Source: a virus. Taken from it: 64,000 bases of DNA. A program made the position numbers and the translations under genes. The notes under the pieces were generated by a model. That model searched no databases. It had not been told where the DNA came from and worked only from the letters and a program-made list of their open reading frames with translations. The stretch's first letter is position 1; every line of letters starts with the position of its first letter. The stretch lies in IMG/VR virus record IMGVR_UViG_3300025949_000016; one strand, given 5' to 3'. Shown here piece by piece: positions 1-21,575 of the stretch.

Positions 1-1336
1 TTATGCCTTTGGTAACTTGATTATTTAATCTTGTTATACCACCATTAATTTGTGCAGCTTGTGTATAATAAACACTAAGTTGAATATTAGGATTAATTGT
101 TGCTACACTTGGACTATATATCGTTAATTCTCCCACTATGGAGGCGGCGGAGTTATTAGAAATACCTGTAATGATAACTCCTTTAGTATCTCCTGAACTA
201 TTAACGGTACCAGCAGATGTTGTATTATGATAACCTAGCATATACGCATAATTACTTGCACCATTGTCGTATGTAGTTCCATCTGCTGATACTAGTAACC
301 AAAGATCTGTAGCTGTAGTAACCGGTCTTAAATTATAAAAATATATCTTTATTACATTGAATAGGTTATAATACGAAGACATATTAATATCTATAGTAGA
401 AACAGAAGTACTTGTACCGGATGTTACTGTTGCTGGAAGAGTACCAGTAATAGGAGGTAATGTAGTAGTTGTAGTGGCTGTTGCAGTTAAAGTAGTAGAA
501 AAAGCTCCAGAAGTTATTAAGCTTGATCCATCTGCTATAGTAAGCGTAGAACTTGTTGTGGGAGCAGTTATTGTTACCTTATTAATAGTAGTAGCTGTAG
601 CTACTCCTAGTATTGGAGTAACTAGGGTTGGTGAAGTAGCAAAAACCAAAGCACCAGAACCGGTCTCATTGGTTATGGCGGCTGCCAAATTGGCACTCGT
701 TGGTGTAGCTAAAAAAGTAGCAACGCCTGTCCCAAGCCCAGATACGCCTGTGGATATTGGAAGACCAGTACAACTTGTAAGTGTTCCAGAACTCGGTGTA
801 CCAAGAATCGGAGTTACTAAAGTGGGTGATGTGGCAAATACTAATGCTCCAGAACCAGTTTCATCTGTAATTGCAGATGCTAAATTAGCACTAGAAGGAG
901 TTACTAAAAAAGTTCCTACTCCTGTTCCTAAACCACTTACTCCAGTAGAAATGGGTAAACCTGTACAGTTAGTAAGAGTACCTGAGCCTGGAGTTCCAAG
1001 TGTTGGAGTTGTTAATATAGGAGAGGTTAAAGTTTTATTAGTCAGCGTTTGTATTCCAGTAAGAGTAGTTGCATCCGTAATTCCATATCCTGATACTGTG
1101 GTAGGAGTACTTGCTATTTGAGCAAAAGTATAATCTCCCGTTTGAGCAACAACGTCACCTGTTCTAGTAAATACAGAACTAACTGCCCCACCACCTCCAC
1201 CTCCTTGAGAAGCTGGTAACTTACCATTAGCATCTAATGTAGCAATTCCATTAGGTTTACCTTGTATGAAATACAAGTTACCTACCATTCTTCTTAGCTT
1301 TTCTAGAAGCTGATCTGTTACTAATTTATATATCAT
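1..1336 (-). CDS. Tail-fibre-like protein, partial (runs off left edge; missing from ORF track)
   Basis: ATG at 1336 overlaps the previous TAA. Reads [60 protein letters not shown], then two ~60-aa repeats ([22 protein letters not shown]..[34 protein letters not shown]). Frame appears open to position 2. Confidence 0.8.
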
Positions 1337-4020
1337 TATATTCGAATGAATTTACGCTTATGACCTGTTTTTATTCGTATACCATTAAGAACTGGTGGAG
1401 CAGGTAAAGCAGGTAATTGAACTGCTCCTATGTCTATATTACTATTACTTCCAAAGGATGCTCTACCAAGAGTAGGTATAGGTGTTCCATATTTATCTTT
1501 GGTTATATAAGATGGTACATTTGTTCCACCATTATATAATACACTATTTAATTTAGGTATAAATAATATACTATCACTTAACCCGGTTGTTGCAAAAGTA
1601 GGTGCAGAAATATTATTTGATGTGTCTATCTTAAGTACTTGACCTGAAGGTTGAGTAAGGATTACTCCACCTGTTCCTAAACTACCAAAAAATGGCCAGG
1701 AGGCGACTGTGTCTGTATAAGGACCATACATTAGTGTATTTTTAATTTCTATTGTATCTACTCCTACACCATAAGCATCTATATAAGATGCACTATAATA
1801 ACTATTACCAGCTCCAACGCCAGGTCTAGAAAGTGTATTATTATATGCTCTAAGTGATCTTCTTGGTAAATAATAGGAAATTGTCCCATCTCCAAAGTTA
1901 GGTCTTACTTCAACAACAGGATATTTTCTCTTCAATCTACTAATATTATTGTGCCATCTAGATACTCCATCAAATAATGAATCTTCTCGTAAAAATAGCC
2001 AATTTAATGCTGGAACTTGACCAAGTCCAAAACTTCTTGCTTCATTACCAAAGATCGAAGGACCAAAGTAATTATTATAAACATCTACATAGCAATATTT
2101 AAATTGAAACATTCCACAATGACCTATGGGATTAGTAAGAACACCTATGTTCCAACAAGAATCATCATGAATTTTTACTCCATATACATTGGTTAGATTA
2201 AGATAACAAGCTGGATTAGGAGCACCAGAAGTGTAATCTCCTATCTTACAATGATCCACTTCTAGAAATGCCCACATTTCATTAGCAGCGGTATTGCCTG
2301 CTGTAAAAAATGTTAATCCTGCTTGAGTAGAGCTACTATCTGCAAAGATTTTAGTAAGTCTCCACTTATAAAACATATGGACAGTATCTGTCGATGATCC
2401 ATCATAGTTGGGTAATGTACTAGAACTAGGAAGACTAGATGAATTAAATCCAGGCATCTTTATAAGTACAAGAGAATCAAAAGTTATAAAATGAGAATGG
2501 GCTGTATTTGCATATGTGAATAAAAATGGATCAGCGTGATTACTCATGTTAATTCCATATACACGAACGTGGTTACAATTATCCATTGTATTAGCAAACA
2601 AATTCACTGAACTAGGAGTAATAAACACGTTACCTTGAGCTATTATTTGAATATCTAATGTATCATTTATTGTTCCTATTCCAGACATAGAGAAACTACG
2701 ATAACCTCCAGATTTCGGTGGTATATAAACAGTGTCTCCTCCTTTTAAAGTAAATCCTACATTTGCATTAGTAATATTAATATTACCATTTGTTACTGGC
2801 CAAGTATATTTTCTATATGTAACTGTAGCCGGATTCACTACTACTTGCATTGTAGCATTATTACTGTTATTTTGATTATCTGTTGTTGTTAACTTAAATA
2901 CGTATGTACCTTGAATAAGTCCAGTTACACTTGTGCTAAGTGTATTAGGACTAGTAATGGTTGCACTATTAGGTCCTGACAGCTCACTCCATACATTAGA
3001 AGATATTGTATTACCACATAATGCACTAGAAGATCCTGTCAAATTGACAGTATTTATCGGTAATGTTATAGATTGATTAGATCCTGCACTTACTGTAGGA
3101 TTACAGTTTACTCCCCCTACCAGTGTTGTGTCACCTTGAGCAATCATCCATGTAAATAGGTTTTGACCTACTCTATACGTACCCATTGTATTTTTACCTA
3201 CCTGACTAGGAGCATTATTAGGTCCTAATGGAGTCACACAACTCCAATTAGTAGCGCTTGGATCATACATGCTGTTCCAACAGCAATGCGCTCCTCCTCC
3301 TAAATTTTCATAAGAAAAGTAACCAGATCCAGGTACTGAATCATTCATTGCAAGGGAGTAATGCCAACCATCCCTAAAGTTATCAGAACCTGAACCTTCT
3401 AAGTAAAAATATCGTCCACCATACTTTGCTGCCCATACTTTATAAGCCACAGTATCACGATCCCATGTGCTATAAGGAGAGGGTAAAGGATCAGGAGTAC
3501 CTTCTAGTAAACAAGCACTTTTAATGAGTTTCATTCCAGTTTCAGCACCAGCAGTTTGCTCAAATTTAATCATTGCTCCCCAACTAAATGCACCTTGGCT
3601 AAGTCCTGTTAGATGTACACTGCTCCTCTTAATAGGATAATGTGTAACAATATAATTCAGCACTTCATATACGCAAGGAGGATAAGGGGTAACAGTAGTT
3701 GTTGCTGAAACACTTATTATAATGGGATAGTGTTTTCCATTACCTAAAGTTACACCACCGTCCCAACCATGTTGTAACCAATAAAAAGGACCATTTCTAG
3801 TTATAATAGTTGTATCTGTAGTACCTTGCTCTCCTTGTCCTGGCATAAATATAATAGCAGGTCGCTGAGCTGTATCACTACTTATAGGTCTATGGATAAT
3901 CAACTTAAATGGACCACAAGCACTATTATAAATAGTATCATAATGTTGAAATGCACTTGATTCTGATTGTCCGAAAGCTATTATAGGAAGTATAAATAAT
4001 ATGAATAGTAATTTCTTCAC
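1336..4020 (-). CDS. Secreted-type multidomain protein: signal peptide + alpha/beta-hydrolase (esterase) + PKD-like domain + right-handed beta-helix
   Basis: [17 protein letters not shown]|Q signal; [11 protein letters not shown], nucleophile elbow [12 protein letters not shown]; PKD-like [24 protein letters not shown]; Asn-rich beta-helix-like C-terminal half. Confidence 0.75.
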
Positions 4021-4415
4021 TATTTCTCTTTAGTGCTTAAAAACTTAATAATAAAGTTATTAGGATAATTTCTAACTACTTTTTTTTGTTTAGAATAATA
4101 AATCACATCTCCTAATCCAAGAGTATGATATACATAGCAATCTTTATCATATCTATCATCATCTTCCGAAGTTTCTATTAATCCATATTTTAATATAACT
4201 GTATCTGCTTGAATAAATGTAATGGTCTTTTTAATTGGATCGCAAGTAATTATCACTCCAAGTTGCTTATTTTTATAATCCTCTTGAATTTTACTTTGTG
4301 ACCAGAAAGATTTATATTTTGCTACTATGGACCATTTACCAGGGTCTTTTGTTTGAGCGTTTACTCTTACTATTGCAAATAAAAGTATAATTGAATAAAT
4401 TAACTTACGTACCAT
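4020..4415 (-). CDS. Small secreted hypothetical protein
   Basis: 131 aa, signal peptide ending VNA|Q; overlaps both neighbours. Confidence 0.65.
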   Translation of the reverse strand: MVRKLIYSIILLFAIVRVNAQTKDPGKWSIVAKYKSFWSQSKIQEDYKNKQLGVIITCDPIKKTITFIQADTVILKYGLIETSEDDDRYDKDCYVYHTLGLGDVIYYSKQKKVVRNYPNNFIIKFLSTKEK

Positions 4416-5730
4416 GTTTCTTGATTTTTATATAACTTATTAAGGCACATTGTTCACTAGTATTTAATCTACCTAAGTAGAAGGTAAAATTACCAGATGC
4501 ATCTGGAGCTATACCAGTGTGACTAGCACCATCAAATATTAACTGTATATTTGTATTACCTTGCCCATTAAAATTCTGATTTGGTTGAAGAGCAGCACCT
4601 TGTACAGTGTAATTACCTACTGCTGCTACTGTAAATTGTGTAGTACCTGATAAATAAATATCATAAAGAGTACCATCTGTCTTCCATCCTCCAGTTATAA
4701 ATTGAGCATTAGTTGTATTAAAAGTGGTTGAATTTAAAAATGCTTCTCTCATGACACCAGAATTGGTAGCATCAGGTATAGTAGCATTAGTTACACCATT
4801 ATTAGCAGAAGCAGATGCTCCACCTAATTGTCCCCAGTTAGCTGTAGAAACAGTACTATAAGTAATTGTTGTGCCAGATATTGTTCCAGAATTTACTGAG
4901 ACACTGGGATCATTAGGTATTCTTTGCCATCCTGTTACTCCATTACCAGAAGTAATTGCAAACTGAAATCTAGCAGAATCAGGTGTTATACTTGTTCCAC
5001 TAACCGTACCTGTTACATTAATATTCTGTGGAGAAACTCCTGATGCTGAAACTACTATTGTGCCACTTACAGGACCTGCTGGAGCTGATGCAGACTCTCT
5101 TACATAGACCGTCTTAGGAGAGCCTGTAGAGAAAGAAATAGAAGAGGAGAAATTTACACCATCTTGACTTACTTCAACAGGAGAAAAGTTATTTACTGTT
5201 ACACTACCAGCTATATTTGAAAAGGTGACTACAAATGTTTGAGCAGGTCCTGCTGTACCAGTTGTAGAATTTAGATTTGTAATAGTATTGGTAGATACTC
5301 CCATATTAGGAGAACTTGTAACAGTGGCACTAAACGGTATATTTAAACTGGCAGTTGTACTTACACCTGTTATGTTACCAGAATAAGAACCGGTTGTTGC
5401 AGTAGATTTTATTCTAGCATATAATAGCCCAGAAAAACTACCACTTGTAGGAGTATAAGATACAGATCCAGACCATGATATACCATCTTTACTCAATTCC
5501 ATCTCTGTAGTACCAGTAAATACTGCATTAGCAGTAAGATTTATACCTGAAACAGTTACTGATTGAGAGCTAGAGGCAGTGCCAGGAACTGTTGAAAAAT
5601 TAAAATAAGTTCCACTGAAACTAAGAAAAGGTCCAGTAGTTTGCAATTGCATACTATATGCTCTTACTATTTGAGCGTTAGCACCAATTCCAATTAAGCT
5701 AAGTAAAAATATTAATATTTTTTTCATCAT
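4405..5730 (-). CDS. Secreted-type Ser/Thr-rich protein with tandem Ig-like domains and a C-terminal beta-sandwich
   Basis: Signal MMKKILIFLLSLIGIGANA|Q; two similar ~100-aa units (ELSKDG..YARI..G.YSGNI / EVSQDG..YVR..G.VSGTI). Confidence 0.7.
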   Translation of the reverse strand: MMKKILIFLLSLIGIGANAQIVRAYSMQLQTTGPFLSFSGTYFNFSTVPGTASSSQSVTVSGINLTANAVFTGTTEMELSKDGISWSGSVSYTPTSGSFSGLLYARIKSTATTGSYSGNITGVSTTASLNIPFSATVTSSPNMGVSTNTITNLNSTTGTAGPAQTFVVTFSNIAGSVTVNNFSPVEVSQDGVNFSSSISFSTGSPKTVYVRESASAPAGPVSGTIVVSASGVSPQNINVTGTVSGTSITPDSARFQFAITSGNGVTGWQRIPNDPSVSVNSGTISGTTITYSTVSTANWGQLGGASASANNGVTNATIPDATNSGVMREAFLNSTTFNTTNAQFITGGWKTDGTLYDIYLSGTTQFTVAAVGNYTVQGAALQPNQNFNGQGNTNIQLIFDGASHTGIAPDASGNFTFYLGRLNTSEQCALISYIKIKKHGT

Positions 5731-5738
5731 AATTTATT

Positions 5739-8700
5739 TTATTCCGCATACCAAAATCTATTGGATGCAATTAATGTTCTAGTTACTCCCGGAGCTATTG
5801 TAATAGATGTAGTAGAGGAAGTATCATAGATTGCATCACTACCTGTTACTCCTATCGTTAAACTAACAGAACCTGCATTCTTTATAACAAATCTTTTATT
5901 TTTATTAGTAGCTAAGTCAGGTAATGTAAATGTAACAGTTGACGAGCCATAAAATATATAATCTGAATATTGATTGTTCATTGTAACAGGTCCAGTTGTT
6001 TCTAAAACTCCTGCACCATAATCCAGTAAATCTCTTTTGTTACCTAAAATATCTACAAAGAAAAGATTTCCCGACGAATTAAGATACATTCCGCCAAAAT
6101 CACCTGCACTAGATGAAACATCAGCACCTGCATCAAACCATAAAGCATATTTTAATGATGTTGATGCACCTAAAGCTACACCATGTCTACTATTCGAAAA
6201 AGCACCATTTAAGATAGTATTTCCATCCGTCTTAAGTGAAAAATTGGTAGGTGAAACACCAAAGTGACTAAAGCCTGCTGCTACATCCAAAGCATAAGTA
6301 AATCCACTAGATGAACTATTTGTACCCATTATTGGCGCATTTTCTATTCTAAATGTTGCTGGACTAGCATATACTACTCCAGTATTAGTACTAGTAATAG
6401 TAGGTGCTTGAAAGTAATAAGAAGAATAATTAGAAACTGTTCCACTAGCAGCAGTTATTGGATTATTAACAGTAGATGCTACTCCTAATAACTGAGATCC
6501 TTGACCATTATTATACTGTCCCCCTGTTATATTTACTCCAGTTGTAGAATAAGTAGATAATCCAGATAAAGGACTACCACTAGTACCTAATGCTAAGGAG
6601 AAATTACCACCAGATACAGTTCTATTTGCAAGTAAAGTACCATCTACATTATATAAACTATTGTCTGTACCCCATGCACCTTGTCCACCGGTTCCAGTTG
6701 CTTTCCATACTTGACCTATGGTAGAGCTAGTAGTTAATATAGGAGCATTAATAAGTGTTTTAGTACCATAAATACTTTGAGTACCTGCATTAATTACACC
6801 TCTTGTTGCATTACCTGCATCAGGTAAATTAAAAGTGTGTGTACTACCGACAGAACTAATATTAAAATCAGTTCCAGAGCCTCCTGTTGCGAAAGTTTGA
6901 CTAGATGCTGAAAGACCGTTTAAATTAGTAATTCCACCACTGGCTAAAAGATCATAACTAGTAGTTCCATCTCTATACCATAGATGCCCACTAGTTGTCC
7001 ATATATCTCCTTGATTTGGAGAAGTGACGGCCACACCCAATGGAATATTGGCAGTAGGATTAGAAGAAGTAGAAGCTGCAAGTGTTGTTTTATTATTTAT
7101 TGTTGCAGTACCTGTAACAGTAAGATTTCCACTAACTGTTTCATTTCCAGTAAATGTACTTGTAGTAGAATTTACAGTAAAGTTATCTAATGGACCGCCA
7201 CCAACAACAGAAAAATTAATACCTTTTGCTCCAGCAGTATTAGGACGTAAAATATTTGCATTAGCTTGATCAGTTCTACTTAAAGTAAGATCTCCAGTAG
7301 TTAAAGTCTGTGAACCAAAAATTGTATTAGCTGCGGTGTTTATGTTTTGCGGTAATGAAATTACAGGTGTTCCAGTTGAACTAGATACATTAACTTGATT
7401 TGCTGTACCACTTATACTATTAACAATATTTGTCCAAGCATAATCATAATTTGTTCCAGTATTTTTAACCAATGCTTGAGCAGTTATTCCACCAGAAGGT
7501 ACTCCACCATTAGCAGGAGGTAACTGACCAGATACATCTGTAGTAAGAACTACAGAACCAAAGCTTAAATTACCGGCAGGATTACCTTTTAATACTGTTG
7601 TTGTGGTACCTTGATTAGAAAATAAAGAACTAGTTAAACTAGGATGTACATAAGTAGGTGCTGCACTTGATCCCGTAGCATTAGCAAGTAAACTATTTGC
7701 AGCAGCTGCAGTAACTGTAAACGTTAAATTAGGAGTTGTAGTAGGGTTAGAAACACTCGTTGTAAACAAAGGGGATGCACTACCGGCACTAAAGTTAGTA
7801 AGAGTACCTCCGCTACCAGGAGTCTGAAATTGAGCAGTACCTGTAGAAGAGTTCCATGTTAATACCATTCCATTACCTTTTCCTGTAGTGTCTATTGGTA
7901 TATAAGGGGTTCTATAAACAGTACCTGTAGTGGTATCCTGTATTAGGTAATCTAACTTACCATTAGATGCTTGATATGTTGTACCTGAAAGAATAAGTGT
8001 TGACCCCACTGTTGCATTACCAAATGTTTGTAATCCAGTCCAAGTGTTAGCATGAGCTAGATTTATAGTAGCATCATAAGATAATCCTTTCTGAGTATGA
8101 TTTTTAGTCCATGTTAATGAATTAGTGCTTGAAGTCATATTAATGCCCTTAAACCAAACAGTATCTCCAGTTATATTTAAATAAGCAATAGAATCACCAA
8201 CATTTGTATTAGCTAAATTAATAGTACTATCTATTCTTTTCTTATCACCAGGACTCATTAATCCTGCATTACTATAATTAACAAGAACAACTGTACCAGC
8301 AGTACCTGTAGAAGAATTAATAGTAGCTGTAGTGGAATTTTGCGTAACACTTATATTAGTATTACCTGCTCCACTAGCAGTTGTCCAACTTGTATTAGTA
8401 CCATCTGTAGTTAATACTTTACCATTATTTCCAGCTTGATTAGGTAAAATGGTATTCAAAGCGGAGTTCTTATTACCAACATCTGATAGATTATTAGAAG
8501 CTATCATATTACCAACAGTAATAGAACTATCTGAATTTTGAACTCCGTTTATTAACCTTTTAGCAAAAACCGTATCATTTCTACCATATATAGCAACAGG
8601 ATATGTTCCAAGGCTTGGTGATGGTACTATAAGAACAGTATCTAATTTGGTTAGATCGTATTTAGTAGCCAATTTACTAACAGTATCAATAGGTCCAAAA

Positions 8701-9977
8701 GGTATATAAGTAAGTGTATTAGTAATGTCAGTAGCAGTAGCAGCAACAGCCGATGTAATTAAACCTTTTGCATTAACTGTATGTTTAAGTAAAGTATTAG
8801 AAGCAAATACATTACTATTTACTGTAGCAAGCGTAAGAGGAAGATTAGATCCCACAGCTGTACCACTTGCATCTCCTGTAGCTGTGCTTACACCTCCAGA
8901 TCCACTAGCTTGGGCAACCCATGTTCCATTATCAGAAAGAACTTTACCACTCACTGTACCGGGAGCAGGTACTGCACCAGAAAGAGTGGTAGTAAACGTA
9001 TTTATATCCGCTGTAAGCTGAGTATTTGTTTGATAGTTAGAAGTATTACCAGATTGTTTAATATATCCAGTTCCAGATAATTGATTTTGTTTTAATGATA
9101 CATCGTATATACTAGCTAGTGTAGATATAGTATCAAGAGATAGATTATTACCAACAAGCGTTATACCTGTACCAGTAGTAACTGTTAAAAGAGTTTTACT
9201 CACTGGTATAGATCCTGGTAAATCCGCTACAGTAATAGTAGAATAAGCAGGAGGACCTGTGGAACTAGTAGTATTACCTAAAAAAGTATGAGCAGCAGCA
9301 TTACTTAGCGTAAAACTAATAGAGGGATGAGTAGATGCATTAGAAACACTTGCTCCAAATATAGGAGAAAGATTGCCGGCAGCTACGTCCAAAACAGTGC
9401 CAGAACCACCAGTACTACCAACAGAATCTTTTATAGCAAAGCTTCTAAATGTATTATCATTATTTCTTACTCTTATTCTAATGGAATCTAAATCCTTCCA
9501 AATAGAATCTATCATTCTAGGTTTATTAAGTATAGAGGTAAATCCAGAAGCAGCATTCCAATCACTAGAGACTTGACCGGGAGGTATAGTAGGTTTATTT
9601 GTTAAATCTAAATAGGAGCCACTTGTAGCTACAGTTGCAAGTACTGGTTTATTTAAGATTTGAGCCACACCAGACGTAGCGTTCCAGTCAGCATTTACCT
9701 GACCAGGTATAGTGGTAGTATCACCTCTTAATCTATACCACCGAGTGCCGTCCCACCAATAAGGTTGTCCCAAGAAAGATACCATTCTACCAGGTCTAGC
9801 TACGTGTTTACTTGTATCTGTTATAGCAAATTCATGTGCACTATCTTCTCTAGCTACTCCACGAGTAACCATTGTATTTTTTGGCGTACCAATGTATTGA
9901 ATTTGAGCAGTGCAAGCAGAAGGTATTCCAAATCCTGCGCAAATAAGTAGTAATATAATACCTAAATACTTTTTCAT
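5739..9977 (-). CDS. Long tail-fibre-like protein with N-terminal signal peptide
   Basis: 1412 aa, G/S/T/N-rich; QVNADWNA..ILNKP repeats, LATVATSGSYxDLxNKP and GKVLTTDGT fibre motifs; C-terminal TFTLP..IKNAG knob-like module. Confidence 0.75.
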   Translation of the reverse strand: MKKYLGIILLLICAGFGIPSACTAQIQYIGTPKNTMVTRGVAREDSAHEFAITDTSKHVARPGRMVSFLGQPYWWDGTRWYRLRGDTTTIPGQVNADWNATSGVAQILNKPVLATVATSGSYLDLTNKPTIPPGQVSSDWNAASGFTSILNKPRMIDSIWKDLDSIRIRVRNNDNTFRSFAIKDSVGSTGGSGTVLDVAAGNLSPIFGASVSNASTHPSISFTLSNAAAHTFLGNTTSSTGPPAYSTITVADLPGSIPVSKTLLTVTTGTGITLVGNNLSLDTISTLASIYDVSLKQNQLSGTGYIKQSGNTSNYQTNTQLTADINTFTTTLSGAVPAPGTVSGKVLSDNGTWVAQASGSGGVSTATGDASGTAVGSNLPLTLATVNSNVFASNTLLKHTVNAKGLITSAVAATATDITNTLTYIPFGPIDTVSKLATKYDLTKLDTVLIVPSPSLGTYPVAIYGRNDTVFAKRLINGVQNSDSSITVGNMIASNNLSDVGNKNSALNTILPNQAGNNGKVLTTDGTNTSWTTASGAGNTNISVTQNSTTATINSSTGTAGTVVLVNYSNAGLMSPGDKKRIDSTINLANTNVGDSIAYLNITGDTVWFKGINMTSSTNSLTWTKNHTQKGLSYDATINLAHANTWTGLQTFGNATVGSTLILSGTTYQASNGKLDYLIQDTTTGTVYRTPYIPIDTTGKGNGMVLTWNSSTGTAQFQTPGSGGTLTNFSAGSASPLFTTSVSNPTTTPNLTFTVTAAAANSLLANATGSSAAPTYVHPSLTSSLFSNQGTTTTVLKGNPAGNLSFGSVVLTTDVSGQLPPANGGVPSGGITAQALVKNTGTNYDYAWTNIVNSISGTANQVNVSSSTGTPVISLPQNINTAANTIFGSQTLTTGDLTLSRTDQANANILRPNTAGAKGINFSVVGGGPLDNFTVNSTTSTFTGNETVSGNLTVTGTATINNKTTLAASTSSNPTANIPLGVAVTSPNQGDIWTTSGHLWYRDGTTSYDLLASGGITNLNGLSASSQTFATGGSGTDFNISSVGSTHTFNLPDAGNATRGVINAGTQSIYGTKTLINAPILTTSSTIGQVWKATGTGGQGAWGTDNSLYNVDGTLLANRTVSGGNFSLALGTSGSPLSGLSTYSTTGVNITGGQYNNGQGSQLLGVASTVNNPITAASGTVSNYSSYYFQAPTITSTNTGVVYASPATFRIENAPIMGTNSSSSGFTYALDVAAGFSHFGVSPTNFSLKTDGNTILNGAFSNSRHGVALGASTSLKYALWFDAGADVSSSAGDFGGMYLNSSGNLFFVDILGNKRDLLDYGAGVLETTGPVTMNNQYSDYIFYGSSTVTFTLPDLATNKNKRFVIKNAGSVSLTIGVTGSDAIYDTSSTTSITIAPGVTRTLIASNRFWYAE

Positions 9978-11338
9978 TATTTATACATTATTGAGTAATA
10001 TGTGTCTGCAGTAAAGACATCATTTGTTAACGTTAATAAACCAGAAGATGGTGTAAAAGTATAGTAAAGTGCTCCATTTGTTCTAGCAACGCCTGCTATT
10101 TTAACACCTTCTACCCATACTCCTAGAATTGTTTTACCAATTAAAGGATTACCAGTAGGATTAAATTGAGAAGATCCAGCTGTTGGTGTTAACGCTCCAC
10201 CATCTCCTACAATAAAATCTATAGTAAAAACACTAGAAGAGGTAGATCCACCACTTCCAGATGAATTTATTATTAGATCACCACCACTTTGCGTAATTGT
10301 TACATTCGTACCAGCTCTAATTCCATTAAAATTAAGTTGTGTGCCATTTTGACTTTGATAAATTGGAAAAGCATTGGTACTTCCTAAATTATTACCAGAT
10401 TGAATTCTAGTATTAAAAGAATTCCAATCTGTTTGAGACAGGTAACCACTTGAACTAGCACTTGCGAGACTTATTCCAATAACACCTGTTACATTATTAT
10501 AAATTATGGGAGCAGTTCCACTAATAGCTGCTCTAGCTTGTACATCTGAATAACTATTAGTACTTGCTTGAGGAACATATAATCCATCAGCATTAGCTAT
10601 AAGTGCGTTTCCTAATAAAGAAGATACTTTTACATTGCCAGTAAGAGTCATTCCATAAGATCCAGAACTATTAAAGTGAATACTGGAGCTATCATTTACA
10701 GATAAAGGAGTTTGAGTAAATCCTCCTGCACTAATTATATAAGGATTAGCTGCTGAACCATTACCACTACCAAAACTTATGTTATTTCCTGGTAGTATAT
10801 AAGTGGTCATGTCTGGAACAAATAATCCGTTAGTTACTTGCAGCTTATTGGCAACACTATTGGAAATCTTAACTGATGCAGTTATATTGTGATTAAATGG
10901 TCCCGTGGCTGTAAAATCTACAGTAGATGAATCTGTAAAATTAAGGGAGGTTTCTGAAAATATAGGAGACCATATACCATCTGCATTTACCTGAATACTA
11001 TTACCAGTTTGGCCAGATATTTTAATATCTGCGGATAAGTTAGCATTATTATAAGTAAGGTCAATACTAGAAGTATCGTTAACTGTAAAGCTACCTCCTA
11101 CAATAAGTCCAGATAAATCTACCTGCTTGTTTTGTATAACCCCATTACTATCCGTATAAGTAATTACTAGAATATAACCATCTAGTCTAAAATCTACAAC
11201 AGGTGTCTTTATACCAAGGCTCTTTATTAAAGTACCTAAGTATACCTGATTACCTCCAGATATAGATAAATACCCAGTATTATTATTTATACTGAGTTTC
11301 TGCGGAGTACAGCAATTATTCGTCAGACCTGTTGCCAT
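9977..11338 (-). CDS. Fibre/structural protein with D[ST]xx[IV]x[LF] repeats; paralogue of 13733-15214
   Basis: 453 aa; DTSSIDLT, DSSTVDFT, DSSSIHF repeats; GYLSQTDWNSFN fibre motif; N-terminus aligns with the 493-aa protein. Confidence 0.7.
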   Translation of the reverse strand: MATGLTNNCCTPQKLSINNNTGYLSISGGNQVYLGTLIKSLGIKTPVVDFRLDGYILVITYTDSNGVIQNKQVDLSGLIVGGSFTVNDTSSIDLTYNNANLSADIKISGQTGNSIQVNADGIWSPIFSETSLNFTDSSTVDFTATGPFNHNITASVKISNSVANKLQVTNGLFVPDMTTYILPGNNISFGSGNGSAANPYIISAGGFTQTPLSVNDSSSIHFNSSGSYGMTLTGNVKVSSLLGNALIANADGLYVPQASTNSYSDVQARAAISGTAPIIYNNVTGVIGISLASASSSGYLSQTDWNSFNTRIQSGNNLGSTNAFPIYQSQNGTQLNFNGIRAGTNVTITQSGGDLIINSSGSGGSTSSSVFTIDFIVGDGGALTPTAGSSQFNPTGNPLIGKTILGVWVEGVKIAGVARTNGALYYTFTPSSGLLTLTNDVFTADTYYSIMYK

Positions 11339-11510
11339 CTTTATTTTTACCTTCTTTTATTCTAAAATAAGTATTAACCACGTTCCATGCTATAGTAGTT
11401 ATACCTGCAAGTATACCTATTACAATAGCAATTGTATTAAGTGTTATCAAGCCAAATATTGTTACTAGTCCATTTGTTACCCAAAGTAATATGCTACGAT
11501 GATCTATCAT
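11316..11510 (-). CDS. Holin-like small membrane protein
   Basis: 64 aa, two hydrophobic segments and a charged C-terminal tail, located in the late module. Confidence 0.5.
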   Translation of the reverse strand: MIDHRSILLWVTNGLVTIFGLITLNTIAIVIGILAGITTIAWNVVNTYFRIKEGKNKDGNRSDE

Positions 11511-11513
11511 TTC

Positions 11514-13733
11514 TTAGTTGCCCCCTGTTCTTACATTAAAGATATAAGTTCCTGCGGCAGATATGGCTCCAGTCATTACTGCAGCAGTTGTACTTGTCCC
11601 GTTAATTGCTACATAACCTCCTGAGGTATTAGCTATTGCGCTACCAGTAGTAGAATTAGCAGAGCTAATTATAACTATAGGAGTATTTGGCCAAGCGCTA
11701 GCAAAATTTATAGTTCCTATTGTACCAGAAACAGCTCCTGAAGTAACTAAAGTAAGTTTCATATTTGCATCTGTTCCTGAAATAGTAAGACTGGTAACAT
11801 TAGTTCCTAATCCACTGGAAGTAGGAGAGCTGCCAAATCCTAATGGATGGTTTACAGCTGATCCAACTGTAATGCTATCCCAGCCAGAACCTTTATATAC
11901 CCAATAAGCAGCTGTACCTGGTGTTGGATTATTATTATAGATAATTTCTCCAGTAAAGAAATTTGTACTATTAGGTATCGTATCTGAATATATTGGGTTT
12001 TTACTTACACTTATAAGTCTCCATGTATTAAGTAAATCACTTCTTTGAAAAAGTGCAGATTGACCATTTCTTAATACAAGACTATTTGAATCGAGTCCAC
12101 TGGGTAATTGGATATTACCACTTTGCCCTCTAAATTGTACAAAACTATATGGATTATTTCCCTCACTACACGTTATTAAAATTTGTTCTAATGGATTTAA
12201 ATTACTATTAATTGTATTAATAAAAGAACTTTTAGAATATGTTCCATTGGTTACAATATCTCTAAAATAACCAGTATTAAGCGTATTACTTGCTACATTA
12301 ATATTTTGACCTACAAAAACAGTAGTATAAGAAAGGTTATCTTGACCATAATTACCGAATATACGACCTCCACCTGGGCTACCTGCTGGAGAAGTATAAA
12401 ATCTACCATTCAATGTACCATATAAACCATTATTAATAGCATCTAAAATAGACCCATCATTTCCAAATATATAAGAACCTAACCCTGTACCAACATTAGC
12501 AATGTGTGTATTTTGTACAGTTACTCTAGATTTATTGGTAGCATGAAATCCTAAAGAATCATTTTCTAACCAACAATCTTGGAAATTTATTCCTTGTGCA
12601 AAATAAGTATAAACCGCTTTTTTAACTGCTTGAATTGTTACTCTCTTAAAAGTAATTGCTCCAAATATCTGATCATTGGAAGTAAGTAAAGAACGAAGAT
12701 CAACACCGACTGTTCCAGCATTGGTTGATCCTTGACCATCAAATTCTGAATCTTCAACAGTTAGTTGGCCCATTTGACCTTCCACATATAAGCCTTTAGA
12801 AGATGAGTCTGATGTACTACTAACTTTTACATGATCAAGTGTTAAAAATTGATTAGCCATATCTCCCAATCCATCAGAACAATAGAAATGAAAGCCATGT
12901 CCTTTAAATCCAGAAATATCTAAGTTTTGAAATTTACTATCCCACAATCCTCCTGTATAAGAAGGAGATGTTTGAGGTATAGCTGTTATATTGAAACAAT
13001 GTTGGTTAGTATTAGATGCATTTCCAACAAGTTTTAGATTAGCAATTGTAATTTTTTGTGCAGGTGTATCTACGAGAACAAATAATCCACTAGCAGAACT
13101 TACCCTAGCTTGAATAGTTGTTCTACCATTATCACCTATAATAGAACAATTTCTTATTTTAATTGAGTCTACAAGAAAAGTTCCTTGTGGTATTCTTACA
13201 ATTTTACTAAGTGTATTACCTGTTGTTGCAAAATCTATAGCCGCATTAATTGCTGCTGTAGAATTAGTAGTACCGTCTCCTATGGCTCCAAACCATTGGA
13301 CATCAATGAAATTACTTATAATCCTTTTATATCTATGTCCACCAGCATCTACTATGATAGTACCAGTATTATCTACACTTGTATTATCAGTTGCATCGTA
13401 ATAAAAGAACCCTTCTTTACCTTTATCTGAGCAATAATAAGATGGAATAGGTGTAGATAGATTAGACCCTCGTAAGTTTGCCAAGCTAATAGATGAGCCT
13501 GAATTTGAACTAAACCATCCACTGGATGTTTTAAAATATACTATATTATTCTTAATAGCCATTGCTCCAACAGGAGAAGTAGATAAAGTATCAAAAGGTG
13601 GTATAAGTCCACTATCTGGCTTTAATATACCTCTCACTCTAATAGTGGTATTTTTACCTCCTAAATACTGCTCAAGTTGAGCATTACTTATGAAAGTAGT
13701 AAACAACAATATTATTGTAAGTAGCCTTTTCAT
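11514..13733 (-). CDS. Tailspike/depolymerase-like beta-helix protein (pectate-lyase-3-like) with signal peptide
   Basis: IDVQWFGAIGDGTTNSTAAINAAID..VRIPQGTF beta-helix start; DNTGTIIVDAGGHRYKR pre-helix module; signal MKRLLTIILLFTTFISNA|Q. Confidence 0.8.
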   Translation of the reverse strand: MKRLLTIILLFTTFISNAQLEQYLGGKNTTIRVRGILKPDSGLIPPFDTLSTSPVGAMAIKNNIVYFKTSSGWFSSNSGSSISLANLRGSNLSTPIPSYYCSDKGKEGFFYYDATDNTSVDNTGTIIVDAGGHRYKRIISNFIDVQWFGAIGDGTTNSTAAINAAIDFATTGNTLSKIVRIPQGTFLVDSIKIRNCSIIGDNGRTTIQARVSSASGLFVLVDTPAQKITIANLKLVGNASNTNQHCFNITAIPQTSPSYTGGLWDSKFQNLDISGFKGHGFHFYCSDGLGDMANQFLTLDHVKVSSTSDSSSKGLYVEGQMGQLTVEDSEFDGQGSTNAGTVGVDLRSLLTSNDQIFGAITFKRVTIQAVKKAVYTYFAQGINFQDCWLENDSLGFHATNKSRVTVQNTHIANVGTGLGSYIFGNDGSILDAINNGLYGTLNGRFYTSPAGSPGGGRIFGNYGQDNLSYTTVFVGQNINVASNTLNTGYFRDIVTNGTYSKSSFINTINSNLNPLEQILITCSEGNNPYSFVQFRGQSGNIQLPSGLDSNSLVLRNGQSALFQRSDLLNTWRLISVSKNPIYSDTIPNSTNFFTGEIIYNNNPTPGTAAYWVYKGSGWDSITVGSAVNHPLGFGSSPTSSGLGTNVTSLTISGTDANMKLTLVTSGAVSGTIGTINFASAWPNTPIVIISSANSTTGSAIANTSGGYVAINGTSTTAAVMTGAISAAGTYIFNVRTGGN

Positions 13734-15214
13734 TAAGATGGTAGTATAATTACCTGAATTAATTCACCTGCTGTTAAAGCTGAACTAAAGGTTATAAAAT
13801 TATCTAATAAGTTCTTAGTAAAGAAGCTATCTCCATTACCAGGATCACTATCAGGTTCCATTAGTTTATTTCTATATACCAATACTGGAAATCCAACAAG
13901 GGCATTATTAACATAAGTAGTACCAGACGTAAAAGGACTTCCAACCGCATCTACTACACCATTTATTTTTAAAGTAGAAATAACAGGAGGTGTGGGAGTT
14001 GTTCCAGATCCACTTCCAATTGCTAACCATATACTATTAACGGCATCATACCACATGAACTGCCTAAGTGTATTATCAAATACAAGTAGACTATCATATA
14101 GATCTCCATTGGGTATAGAAGTGCGCTGACTAGTAGTCATTACTGGTATCTTTATACCATATTGACTAATAAAAACAGGAGCATATCCAGCACTACTATT
14201 ATTTAAGGTACCAAATACTTTAGTAATAGGATTTTGAACCGTTGCTAATGTACTTTGAATACCTGCTATAGTAGCAGCATTAGCATTAGCAACAAGTCCA
14301 TTAGAATGACTTGTAATAAGAATATTACCAGGTGCAGTACCATCTATTTTTACATCTGCTTGTATACCATTAGACGTAGAGGTAAGCGTAATTGTATCAC
14401 TATTAACTAAGTTAACGTCAGCCTGAATTGTATGATTACTAATACCAGAAACTGTCAAATTGACAGTATTAGTATCTATAGCCGTGACAGGTGTTTCTGG
14501 ATTTGGAGTTGGTATTCTATATAATTTAGAATCTGATCCAACCAGCAAAGTACCACTAGGACCTGTGGTTACAAATCCATTAGTAGGTAAATTAGCCAAT
14601 TGTACGTCAGATGTCTGAGCATATAAAGCACCGTCTGTACCAAGTATTAAAGCATTACCTGTATCTGTAGATAATTTAACAGAACCACTTAAACCTAAAT
14701 TACTATCATAAAAATGTAAAGAAGGAGAATCTTGATACTTTAGATTGGCAGTAAGTACATGACCTCCATTACCACTAGGTATTAATTGAATTGTATTAGT
14801 TACGTTAGTAGTAATAGGAATTTCAGGACAACAATCAAACTTAACTCCGTTACTACTTGCACTTACGGGTGCAGTAGAAGACGGATCTATTTTGAGACTA
14901 CCTTTTAAGGTTACTCCATCAAATGTTAAATCAATGGAACTGGTGTCTTGAACAGAAATAGAAGCTCCACCACTTACTAAAGGAGATAAATCTACATTAA
15001 CTGCTTGAGGTAAACGATCTTCTGGTAAATAGACAAGTTGTAGTATTGACCCAGTTAAAGTAAAAGATTGTATTTGTGTATCTGTTTCTAAAAGTTTGAC
15101 AGTATCACCCAAATTAACGGTGTTACCATCACTAATAGATAGATCTCCAACAGTTGAATCTAAAATTAACGTTTGAGCCGTACAAGTCTGTATGGTACTT
15201 TGATTACAGGACAT
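13733..15214 (-). CDS. Fibre/structural protein with DTxx[IV]xL repeats
   Basis: 493 aa; DTSSIDLT, DTNTVNLT; IPVMTTSQR..LLVFDNT..FMWYD..W module typical of Bacteroidota phage fibres. Confidence 0.7.
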   Translation of the reverse strand: MSCNQSTIQTCTAQTLILDSTVGDLSISDGNTVNLGDTVKLLETDTQIQSFTLTGSILQLVYLPEDRLPQAVNVDLSPLVSGGASISVQDTSSIDLTFDGVTLKGSLKIDPSSTAPVSASSNGVKFDCCPEIPITTNVTNTIQLIPSGNGGHVLTANLKYQDSPSLHFYDSNLGLSGSVKLSTDTGNALILGTDGALYAQTSDVQLANLPTNGFVTTGPSGTLLVGSDSKLYRIPTPNPETPVTAIDTNTVNLTVSGISNHTIQADVNLVNSDTITLTSTSNGIQADVKIDGTAPGNILITSHSNGLVANANAATIAGIQSTLATVQNPITKVFGTLNNSSAGYAPVFISQYGIKIPVMTTSQRTSIPNGDLYDSLLVFDNTLRQFMWYDAVNSIWLAIGSGSGTTPTPPVISTLKINGVVDAVGSPFTSGTTYVNNALVGFPVLVYRNKLMEPDSDPGNGDSFFTKNLLDNFITFSSALTAGELIQVIILPS

Positions 15215-15231
15215 CCACTAGTTTTAAAGGA

Positions 15232-15480
15232 TTAGAGACTAGGTACGGTTTTCCATACATTGTCCACGTCAAGATACTCTAAATGAGCACTTATTTTATT
15301 ATACCTTACTGGACGAACGGTAGAATCTTGATCGCAGCATTTATCAGAAAATGCTACATTCCAGCGACTTAGGAGTTTTTTAAATAACTTATCGAGGGAG
15401 AAAAGACCAGCATAGTCTTTATCATTTGTATTTTGCTTCTTTACAATTAATCCCTCCTGAATAAAATAACGAACGACCAT
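15232..15480 (-). CDS. Hypothetical protein (late module)
   Basis: 82-aa ORF, ATG start, co-oriented with the structural genes. Confidence 0.6.
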   Translation of the reverse strand: MVVRYFIQEGLIVKKQNTNDKDYAGLFSLDKLFKKLLSRWNVAFSDKCCDQDSTVRPVRYNKISAHLEYLDVDNVWKTVPSL

Positions 15481-15555
15481 AATATTGTAAGGATGTTTCC
15501 ACGCATCCAGTACGTGTTTTAATTAAAAACGAATCATTTCCTATTCGTAGTTTAT

Positions 15556-15648
15556 TTATTTAATTTTAATTGGCTTTTTATCAACTGGAAGAGTATCATA
15601 AGGAGTACTACATCCACCGCTACCACAACTTGCTTTAATTATTTGCAT
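15556..15648 (-). CDS. 30-aa leader/small peptide MQIIKASCGSGGCSTPYDTLPVDKKPIKIK (not in track)
   Basis: ATG with A/T-rich leader ~40 nt downstream of the leftward promoter; TAA stop. Confidence 0.5.
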   Translation of the reverse strand: MQIIKASCGSGGCSTPYDTLPVDKKPIKIK

Positions 15649-15690
15649 AATTATTTAAATTTTTATCAAGCAATTTCAATATCGCTTAAG

Positions 15691-15722
15691 TTAATATACA
15701 AAATATTATTTAAACTACCAAA
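15691..15722 (-). promoter_or_regulatory. Leftward promoter for the structural/secreted module (variant -7 box)
   Basis: AATTTGG then 20-nt spacer then TATATTAA; same -33 context and spacing as the other promoters. Confidence 0.5.
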
Positions 15723-15742
15723 TTAATTTTTAAAATTAATCT

Positions 15743-15967
15743 ATGACTTTAGTAAAAAAATGTGGAGATTGTCCATTTTGGGGACGCTATAAAGAAATGG
15801 AATGTACTCATTCTAATAATCAAGGCGTTTATAAAAACCTTATAAATTGGGATAACGTAGAGAAAAAACCTCCAAAATGGTGCCCACTAAGAAAAGAAGA
15901 TTACAACGAAGTAAAAATAGTAAATGGTAAGAAAGTTTCAGAAAAACACATAAAACTAATAAAATGA
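15743..15967 (+). CDS. Small Cys-motif hypothetical protein
   Basis: CGDCPFW..C..PKWCPL pattern common in small phage proteins. Confidence 0.65.
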   Translation: MTLVKKCGDCPFWGRYKEMECTHSNNQGVYKNLINWDNVEKKPPKWCPLRKEDYNEVKIVNGKKVSEKHIKLIK

Positions 15968-16284
15968 AATTTAACAAAAACCCATATTATGACCCAGAAG
16001 AATGTGGTCTTGAAATATTCGATGATATAGATACAGCGGGTTCATATGAATTTGATATGTTTGTAATTTGGAGAAAGTTAGACGATAATACTCTTTGGTG
16101 GGGTACAGATTCTGGCTGTAGTTGTCCTACTCCTTTTGAAGGTTTTGAAACTTTAAATGATATGAATCAAATTACTAAAGAAACATTTTATAATTTTGAT
16201 CAAGCTTTAGAAAACCATACCGATATTAGTAAATCAGACTATAATAATATAAAAAACAAAGTAAAACAATATTTAAATATATGA
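15964..16284 (+). CDS. Conserved phage hypothetical protein (DSGCSCP motif)
   Basis: GSYEFD..WGTDSGCSCPTPFE; ATGA overlaps. Confidence 0.7.
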   Translation: MKFNKNPYYDPEECGLEIFDDIDTAGSYEFDMFVIWRKLDDNTLWWGTDSGCSCPTPFEGFETLNDMNQITKETFYNFDQALENHTDISKSDYNNIKNKVKQYLNI

Positions 16285-20734: not shown

Positions 20735-21217
20735 ATGGCAACTTGTAACTATTTTTGTAAATTTGAAAAAAAAGTAAGATCAAGTTTAAAAAAAAGTAAA
20801 AAAGAATATTCAACTAGTATAAACTTTGGTTCATTCATTATTGAATCTGAAGATAACTATGAAGATGGAGATTCAATAGAGCTGGATGTAGAGTATTCTG
20901 AAACTGCTCATTGTTGTGGAGTAGTAGAATTAGGAGATATTGATGTTCAAGATGAAAATAAAGGCTTAATAAAAGAAGAGTGGAAAATTGAGTACATAAA
21001 ATTGCTTCTTCTACATTTATTTAAAAATGAAACTTCAGGAAAATCTTGTAAATTATTTCAATTTACTATACCTATTAGATCTTATAGAGGAAAAATAATA
21101 GAAGACTATCTACTTTTTGAAAAAGGAGCTATAGCCGCAGGGTTTGAATGTGTAGCAGAATTTAAGAATTCTAATTCTGGGAATTTATTACGACATTATA
21201 TAAAATATAAATTATGA
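20735..21217 (+). CDS. GNAT-fold-like protein, paralogue family B (CCG motif)
   Basis: HCCGVVEL..AAGFECVAEFKNSNSGN; resembles 37851 and 39187 products. Confidence 0.5.
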   Translation: MATCNYFCKFEKKVRSSLKKSKKEYSTSINFGSFIIESEDNYEDGDSIELDVEYSETAHCCGVVELGDIDVQDENKGLIKEEWKIEYIKLLLLHLFKNETSGKSCKLFQFTIPIRSYRGKIIEDYLLFEKGAIAAGFECVAEFKNSNSGNLLRHYIKYKL

Positions 21218-21396
21218 CTCAAAACTTAATATTGATTTATTTTATTATTGGTATTACATATACTATTATAAACGGAGCGTTTAGAAAGCTAGATACAGAT
21301 GGTGATTATTTATTGCCACTATCGTGGATACTTATCTGGCCTTTGTTTATACTAGCCTTAATTATTGACAGAACTATTAAACTCTTTAAAAAATGA
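21214..21396 (+). CDS. Small membrane protein
   Basis: Two hydrophobic helices, WILIWP motif. Confidence 0.65.
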   Translation: MTQNLILIYFIIGITYTIINGAFRKLDTDGDYLLPLSWILIWPLFILALIIDRTIKLFKK

Positions 21397-21575
21397 CATT
21401 TTTAAAAGCCGAACTTTTATTAATACTAATATTAATAATTTTATTTTTATTAGATAGCTCTGAAGAGGATCAATTTGATGAATTTAGTAATAGAATAGGA
21501 AATATAGCCGCAGTTTGTACGTTTCTATTATTAATAAACACTATTATTTGTATATTTTATTATATAAAGATATGA
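21393..21575 (+). CDS. Small membrane protein
   Basis: Two hydrophobic helices with an acidic loop. Confidence 0.6.
   Translation: MTFLKAELLLILILIILFLLDSSEEDQFDEFSNRIGNIAAVCTFLLLINTIICIFYYIKI

Follow-up and report, generated by a model that had tools for sequence, protein, structure and literature searches.

Five late proteins of an uncultured crAss-like phage carry predicted Sec leaders with glutamine at +1

Results

Layout of the late gene block

The stretch of DNA analysed here, IMG/VR record IMGVR_UViG_3300025949_000016 (64,000 nucleotides, hereafter the window), belongs to an uncultured crAss-like phage of a soil Bacteroidota host, and our subject is a block of late genes in which five proteins of 739, 1412, 441, 131 and 894 aa begin with a leader of the secretory (Sec) type followed by glutamine. 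The window is part of a 148.6-kb metagenome contig, the identical contig being present in several assemblies, and it encodes a protein of 2441 aa that resembles the crAss-like phage RNA-polymerase subunit. When 20 kb were compared with cultured phages by megablast, no close cultured relative was returned.

The block lies on the minus strand, begins at 15480 and is divergent from the early genes. Its first part encodes, in order, proteins of 82, 493, 739 (signal), 64 (holin-like), 453 and 1412 aa (signal), and its second part proteins of 441, 131 and 894 aa (all with signals) and then a 464-aa fibre. Past the left edge of the window, where the genes were taken from the same contig (L006), the block ends with 52- and 92-aa membrane proteins and a 175-aa peptidoglycan hydrolase, and a strand switch follows. 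The genes are tightly packed with TAATG or TAGTG stop–start overlaps, by which the start codons of the leader-bearing genes are fixed, and the block is a single late operon combining fibres, proteins with export signals and lysis genes.

Leaders with glutamine at +1

Leaders were called by a rule-based scan for n-, h- and c-regions over all open reading frames (ORFs) of at least 60 aa. A preliminary description, drawn from the letters of the window alone, had stated that the five proteins start with a leader, basic and then hydrophobic, that ends in a small residue (−1) and is followed by Gln (+1), and re-reading of the N-termini bore this out in every case: the cut sites are IIAFG↓QSE (894 aa), VRVNA↓QTK (131 aa), IGANA↓QIV (441 aa), SACTA↓QIQ (1412 aa) and FISNA↓QLE (739 aa). 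Each leader has two Lys/Arg residues in the n-region, a hydrophobic core of 12–14 residues and small residues at −1 and −3; since cores of this length are too short for an anchor, the leaders fit cleavable signals and not membrane anchors. Leaders occur on half of the proteins of the block within the window (5 of 10), and apart from these five genes the scan of the window flagged only two antisense ORFs inside the giant gene. Counted by gene, 5 of 13 members of the module carry a leader as against 0 of 45 others (Fisher p = 0.0003), and in all five the residue after the predicted cut is Gln.

The leader and the +1 Gln are kept in homologues that are only 35–55% identical. For the 739-aa spike, homologues at 53–55% identity retain both, the one seeming exception being a miscalled start. 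Among 148 spike homologues, the top matches of a full HMMER search of 1.84 billion representatives, a leader was found in 29, with Gln at +1 in 29 of 29; when these and two more recognised by eye were aligned, Met1 and the +1 Gln were the only invariant columns of the 31 sequences, which carry spike-type domains. In 16 homologues of the 894-aa protein (36–51% identity), Gln18, the serine of GLSQG (Ser141) and His245 are invariant. Judged from the leaders and their conservation, the five proteins are very probably substrates of the Sec pathway and signal peptidase I that are exported in the Bacteroidota host.

Leaders are absent from the 493-aa and 453-aa fibre proteins and from the leftmost one (464 aa, truncated at the edge of the window), and no C-terminal T9SS (type IX secretion system) domain was found (no match in Pfam at E ≤ 0.01 or NCBIfam at E ≤ 1), both as described earlier; in particular, the sorting domains PF18962, TIGR04183 and PF13585 gave no match on the five proteins in Pfam or NCBIfam at E ≤ 1. 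No common C-terminal sorting motif was seen among the five. A reading of the set as T9SS cargo was therefore rejected, there being no sorting domain on the five proteins and none on the 31 leader-bearing spike homologues (0/31). A lipoprotein (signal peptidase II) reading of the 1412-aa protein was likewise discarded, as its leader Cys is not conserved: it is the only one of the five with Cys in the leader, and its orthologues in two other contigs (L005, L008) lack the Cys yet keep the +1 Gln.

The leader-bearing proteins one by one

The same description had called all five proteins fibre- or spike-like, which proved apt for the 739-aa protein, a beta-helix spike, and the 1412-aa protein with its fibre repeats. 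It does not hold for the other three: the 441-aa protein is immunoglobulin (Ig)/lectin-like, the 131-aa protein resembles a small beta-barrel and the 894-aa protein is an enzyme of esterase, PKD and beta-rich parts.

The 739-aa protein (11514..13733, minus strand; leader aa 1–18 at nt 13680–13733, Gln19 at +1) is a predicted exported, tailspike-like depolymerase. It has the right-handed beta-helix body typical of phage tailspike depolymerases, with matches to the pectate-lyase-like beta-helix PF12708 (E 5e-11), to PF27114, to PHROGs of tail fibres and exopolysaccharide (EPS) depolymerases, and to the solved tail fibre 5w5p (E 7e-8). No close relatives of it or of the leader-bearing protein P0161 were found in IMG/VR. 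Its N-terminus consists of the leader and a module of ~60 aa that is weakly like the corresponding part of the 1412-aa protein, P0154, P0161 and P0183; a strong common docking domain after the leader was considered and rejected, the likeness amounting to 17 of 48 identical residues (E 9e-5) and lying partly within the leader. The spike homologue P0010 has a signal-less fibre N-domain in place of the leader. The C-terminal ~125 aa of the spike (window 11514–11900, minus strand) recur on many leader-bearing proteins that are otherwise different, P0154, P0161, P0162, P0183 and P0193 among them.

The 1412-aa protein (5739..9977, minus strand; leader aa 1–24 at nt 9906–9977, Gln25), predicted to be an exported fibre-like protein, is the first of four adjoining genes that recur elsewhere as a cassette. 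Its residues 81–155 match annotated tail fibres of Synechococcus, Ralstonia and crAss phages, and its C-terminal ~100 aa (5739–6038, minus strand) are 35% identical to the C-termini of the spike homologues P0003 and P0004. By these sequence matches the C-terminal domains of the 739- and 1412-aa proteins look like mobile tip domains.

The second cassette gene (4405..5730, minus strand) encodes the 441-aa Ig/lectin-like protein, predicted to be exported (leader aa 1–19 at nt 5674–5730, Gln20), for which Ig/BACON-like neighbours give a weak lead only. The third (4020..4415, minus strand) encodes the small 131-aa protein, with a leader at aa 1–20 (nt 4356–4415) and Gln21; its nearest clusters are viral hypothetical proteins and its nearest folds small Bacteroidota NlpE-like proteins (TM about 0.6), and a gene of this type always lies between the 441- and 894-type genes. 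The fourth (1336..4020, minus strand, GTG start) encodes the 894-aa protein, with a leader at aa 1–17 (nt 3970–4020) and Gln18. In its structural model (pLDDT 75.5) an N-terminal alpha/beta-hydrolase resembling carboxyl and feruloyl esterases is followed by a PKD domain (PF22352 match) and a beta-rich C-terminal half; the mature N-terminus is the esterase itself, with no N-terminal docking module. No match to cultured phages was obtained by tblastn with the 894-, 441- or 493-aa protein.

A glycosylation motif enriched only in the leader-bearing proteins

In Bacteroidota, proteins exposed to the periplasm are O-glycosylated at D-(S/T)-(A/I/L/V/M/T) (PMC8550257, PMC8729774). The 894-aa protein contains 14 such motifs where 2.5 are expected and the 1412-aa protein 14 where 7 are expected; the signal-less 453-aa protein and the 445 aa of the leftmost fibre that lie in the window contain none. 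Over four phages, 21 signal-bearing proteins together hold 114 motifs versus 45.6 expected (2.5-fold, Poisson 1e-17), and the excess persists when the 894 family is left out (74 versus 37.9, p 1e-7). In the same phages the counts are 21 versus 23.5 for signal-less fibre and baseplate proteins, 12 versus 18.9 for cytoplasmic proteins and 7 versus 13.3 for giant virion proteins, and nine control motifs gave ratios of 0.5–1.3. In the 894-aa protein, 8 of the 14 sites are kept in at least 12 of 15 homologues, with variation only among the allowed residues.

This enrichment, which is restricted to signal-bearing proteins, supports reading the motif as an independent mark of periplasmic location, and the exported proteins are predicted to be probably O-glycosylated at these sites.

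Host ancestry of two of the proteins

Two members of the set resemble secreted proteins of Chitinophagaceae. A 1099-aa protein of a Puia sp. metagenome-assembled genome shows 52% identity to residues 3–329 of the 894-aa protein, a span that takes in the leader and Gln; the 910-aa product of the neighbouring Puia gene shows 52% identity, in the part just before its sorting domain, to residues 92–438 of the 441-aa protein. The two Puia proteins are, like the phage proteins, rich in the glycosylation motif; unlike the phage copies, they both end in the T9SS sorting domain PF18962. The 441-aa protein stops exactly where the Puia sorting domain begins, and the 894-aa protein has its beta-rich C-terminal half where the Puia homologue has the sorting domain. 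About 20 phage-type homologues of the 894-aa protein, each of ~900 aa, are without PF18962, whereas the bacterial ones, mostly from Chitinophagaceae, have it. The Puia locus is plainly chromosomal (54% G+C, with two-component and transporter genes nearby).

On this comparison, the phage has taken modules secreted by its host, kept the leader and dropped the T9SS tag. Because these two proteins resemble Puia T9SS cargo, the host is probably a Chitinophagaceae-like bacterium. The 1099-aa cargo (L007 5250–11308) itself consists of an esterase followed by several repeats of the 441-type module; as esterase and 441-type modules thus occur in one Puia chain, a single chain of the host corresponds to two genes of the phage.

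A cassette that moves between phages

The genes for the 1412-, 441-, 131- and 894-aa proteins form a four-gene cassette that is present in at least six other contigs, from phages of several tail types, always in the order big protein, ~450 aa, ~135–146 aa and ~900 aa, and all with a leader and Gln. One carrier, the 98-kb contig L004, also encodes a giant protein of 4345 aa. In L005, a contig of myovirus type, the cassette comes directly after baseplate genes resembling gp25, J and I, and in L008 (26 kb) it is followed by a holin-like gene. In L016 and L017 it lies just upstream of the sheath and tube genes and opens with a 1211-aa spike in place of the fibre. In a related phage of 156 kb, six consecutive signal-bearing proteins are flanked by signal-less fibres and a lysozyme cassette. 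The giant protein of the 98-kb contig (L004 1–990) carries the helicase domains AAA_30 and UvrD_C_2 and lies just upstream of the fibre genes.

Signal-less fibres, lysis genes and other features of the block

Three fibre-type proteins of the block have no leader. The 493-aa fibre-like protein (13733..15214, minus strand), whose stop codon overlaps the start of the 739-aa gene (TAATG), and the 453-aa fibre-like protein (9977..11338, minus strand) are paralogous (BLASTP E 2e-15, best in the N-terminal 120 aa). Tblastn of the 453-aa protein against cultured phages matched only repeat regions of two unrelated phages. The third, the 464-aa tail fibre (2..1336, minus strand, 445 aa in the window), matches the virion structural protein phrog_6002.

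The gene for the 64-aa holin-like membrane protein (11316..11510, minus strand) is placed between those for the 739- and 453-aa proteins, with an overlap of 23 nt into the start of the latter; its product matches the HP1-type holin family PF16080 (E 4e-6, 27.1 bits, just under the 28.8 cut-off) and the holin phrog_20 (E 1.6e-8). The stand-alone 175-aa hydrolase has a tail-lysozyme domain (phrog_1259, E 1e-27) and is encoded together with the 52- and 92-aa membrane proteins at L006 14511–16034; no spanin candidate was identified at this end of the block.

The first gene of the block encodes an 82-aa protein (15232..15480, minus strand) with no family match. Its identity to a 68-aa protein from the border of a related phage's module (L002 17663–17869), with which it has the motif CC-D...PVRYN...LEY in common, is 45%, and by this likeness it is a conserved small protein of the module border. 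G+C content is 0.32–0.37 over window positions 1–16000, where the fibre and export genes lie, versus 0.25–0.31 over 16000–64000, and it is alike in the signal-bearing and signal-less genes of the block. Within the early plus-strand block, two adjoining ORFs of 60 aa with very hydrophobic N-termini were seen at 21214–21575 (+).

Comparison with known systems

A close parallel in layout is Cellulophaga phage phi18:3 (Pachyviridae, NC_021794), in which gp085, gp086 and gp087 are three consecutive large late proteins with leader and Gln, situated between a holin-like gene and the lysis cassette much as in the block described here. The likeness is one of layout only, gp085–087 having no detectable homology to the window proteins; no Cellulophaga phage was among the matches when the 739-, 1412-, 894- and 441-aa proteins were searched by tblastn against 50,697 phage records. 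Phi18:3 differs further in showing no excess of the glycosylation motif (each protein 1 versus about 3 expected) and in being a podovirus with no signal-less fibres near gp085–087.

The cultured phages crAss001 (gp22–26) and phi14:2 (g080–g086) are of the same broad lineage as the window and have beta-helix spike proteins, in crAss001 also with lysis genes after the spikes. Their spikes, unlike those of the window, have no leaders, are assembled in the cytoplasm and hold the motif at expected counts (16 versus 13.2 in crAss001 gp22–26). The periplasm-facing lysis-regulatory protein of crAss001, gp27 (L011 25093–25695), has an N-terminal anchor or leader and 4 motifs versus 0.3 expected, so that periplasm-facing lysis proteins of Bacteroidota phages may be glycosylated, as far as motif counts can suggest.

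WceF of Pantoea stewartii is a trimeric, exported EPS depolymerase of tailspike fold with no particle-binding domain (PMC7949094). It is comparable to the window spike in its beta-helix and export signal and acts off the virion on the EPS of its own producer; it differs in being encoded by a chromosomal gene of an EPS cluster in a proteobacterial host and in using a twin-arginine (Tat) and not a Sec signal. Phages of Porphyromonas gingivalis have five genes with Q-rule signal peptides (Matrishin et al. 2023, PMC10367356), which in contrast to those of the window are of unknown function, are not fibre- or spike-like and do not occupy the receptor-binding slot. In the literature searched, no description was found of signal peptides on tail fibres or spikes of Bacteroidota phages, nor of post-export assembly for any tailed phage.

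Discussion

Proposed pathway

Export to the periplasm, as the preliminary description had proposed, is well supported: the leader and Gln are conserved, the glycosylation motif is enriched and conserved, and two of the proteins descend from T9SS cargo. In the pathway that we propose, a single, tightly coupled operon would yield the five proteins late; they would pass through the inner membrane in the unfolded state and shed a leader of 17–24 residues, whereupon the new N-terminal Gln would be cyclised to pyroglutamate. Folding in the periplasm, with probable O-glycosylation at D-(S/T)-(A/I/L/V/M/T), would follow. Lacking a T9SS sorting domain, the proteins would be kept in the periplasm up to the point at which the holin and wall hydrolase of the operon lyse the cell; with a holin in the block and a wall hydrolase just beyond, lysis probably replaces T9SS as the exit. 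Outside the cell, they would bind and cut the surface sugars of the host, with the 739-aa protein as a beta-helix depolymerase, the 894-aa protein as an esterase with a beta-rich domain, the 441-aa protein as a lectin-like module, the 1412-aa protein as a fibre-like binder and the 131-aa protein as a small partner or chaperone.

Fate of the exported proteins

The preliminary description had allowed for two fates, attachment to virions at or after lysis and action off the virion. We tentatively prefer, at less than even confidence, the reading that the exported set acts mainly off the particle, clearing or masking capsule, EPS and receptors around the time of the burst, the 493-, 453- and 464-aa proteins being the particle's own fibres. 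Three signal-less fibres have been retained by the phage. The descent of the 894- and 441-aa proteins from enzyme and lectin modules of the host, the former without a docking part, favours free action, as does, by analogy, the bacterial precedent of an exported tailspike-fold enzyme in WceF. The lack of leaders on the spikes of cultured crAss001 and phi14:2, together with the failure to find post-export assembly in the literature searched, points the same way.

Several observations weigh against this preference. It is hard to see what a fibre of 1412 aa without an enzyme domain would do if set free. The 739- and 1412-aa proteins are built as mosaics of the receptor-binding kind, with a common post-signal module, swappable centres and mobile C-termini. 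The cassette occupies the tail-fibre slot of myovirus-type contigs. In the pairs 493→739 and 453→1412 the two genes are translationally coupled through overlapping stop and start codons, and the upstream partners are paralogues of one another. The C-terminal ~80 aa of the 453-aa protein are 35% identical to the C-terminus of a 1356-aa fibre in L016 (E 8e-15) and 32% identical to a 256-aa protein in L005 (E 0.002), so that a domain of this type is found on a signal-less protein directly upstream of the cassette in three phage backbones. Finally, gp085–087 of phi18:3 are annotated in their record as virion proteins from tandem mass spectrometry (MS/MS).

The first rival reading is a two-compartment assembly, in which the exported proteins, at least those of 739 and 1412 aa, are receptor-binding proteins of the virion that reach maturity in the periplasm and attach, on opening of the inner membrane by the holin or just after lysis, to the tips of the 493- and 453-aa proteins mounted in the cytoplasm. 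The overlapping gene pairs, the recurrence of the 453-type domain beside the cassette, the mosaic build, the position of the cassette by baseplate and sheath genes, and the virion detection of the phi18:3 proteins encoded between holin-like and lysis genes all speak for docking. Dewey et al. 2010 reportedly found holin lesions large enough to mix the two compartments. Set against this, no such route was found for tailed phages in the literature searched, phi18:3 is linked by analogy and not by sequence homology, the module after the signal is short and shows weak conservation, host enzymes gave rise to the 894- and 441-aa proteins, and co-transfer of the upstream domain could mean a common host specificity in place of contact. 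We regard docking as possible though somewhat doubtful. Its fullest version is to be classed as unlikely: the capsid, tail and short signal-less adaptor fibres would be built in the cytoplasm, the long fibre, spike and partners would be exported, trimmed to pyroglutamate, O-glycosylated by the host and snapped onto the adaptor tips at holin opening, and the set, with its docking domain, would pass as a single cassette among crAss-like, myovirus-type and other phages.

It is improbable that the proteins form two pools, one part folding before export and being built into cytoplasmic particles with the leader uncleaved, the exported part serving as free enzyme. Fast folding can render large beta-helix trimers unfit for export, and two pools would reconcile the MS/MS detection in phi18:3 virions with ordinary cytoplasmic assembly; however, hydrophobic leaders that remain in the cytoplasm are prone to aggregation or membrane targeting, and since the +1 Gln is invariant and the glycosylation motifs are conserved, selection acts on the exported form. 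Slightly less credit still can be given to action in the periplasm before lysis, where nascent capsule, EPS or receptors would be cut or masked from inside, for instance to block superinfection or to ease lysis and release. Without a T9SS domain the proteins would remain in the periplasm, their operon is common with the lysis genes, and WceF and periplasmic capsule depolymerases offer precedents; but a late operon with lysis genes leaves little time, and a fibre-like 1412-aa protein and a lectin would be odd tools for the purpose. The notion that the leaders are vestigial, or that the block is bacterial DNA misassembled onto a phage, so that the proteins are ordinary cytoplasmic fibres or not of the phage at all, might draw on the G+C of the block above that of the rest of the window and on the host origin of two members, yet it is already largely refuted and very improbable, given the same contig in several assemblies, phage fibre, holin and lysozyme genes within the block, the cassette in at least six other phage contigs, a host locus of 54% G+C, and leaders with Gln conserved at 35–55% identity. 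Taken together, periplasmic action before lysis and this last notion make up only a small remainder beside free action, docking and the two pools.

Significance

In the textbook account, the assembly of tailed phages is wholly cytoplasmic and receptor-binding proteins are assumed to be without export signals. Here, as in about a fifth of the closest public spike homologues, the secretion signal and the glycosylation motif of the host are both found on spike and fibre proteins of Bacteroidota-type phages.

Were the exported proteins to act as free enzymes, Bacteroidota phages would routinely secrete depolymerases that are matured in the periplasm and probably glycosylated, with a bearing on host-range prediction, enzyme discovery and protein expression; because of that periplasmic maturation, the cytoplasm of E. 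coli would be the wrong site for expressing them. If they are instead joined to the particle, a new assembly route would be at hand, giving virions with host glycans, and under the two-compartment build the particles would carry host-type sugars. The question of fate can be put to the test in the cultured Cellulophaga phage phi18:3. The ancestry of two of the proteins in host cargo points to Chitinophagaceae as the likely host clade, and it illustrates one route by which phages recruit enzymes secreted by their hosts, with the leader kept, the T9SS tag dropped and release left to lysis.

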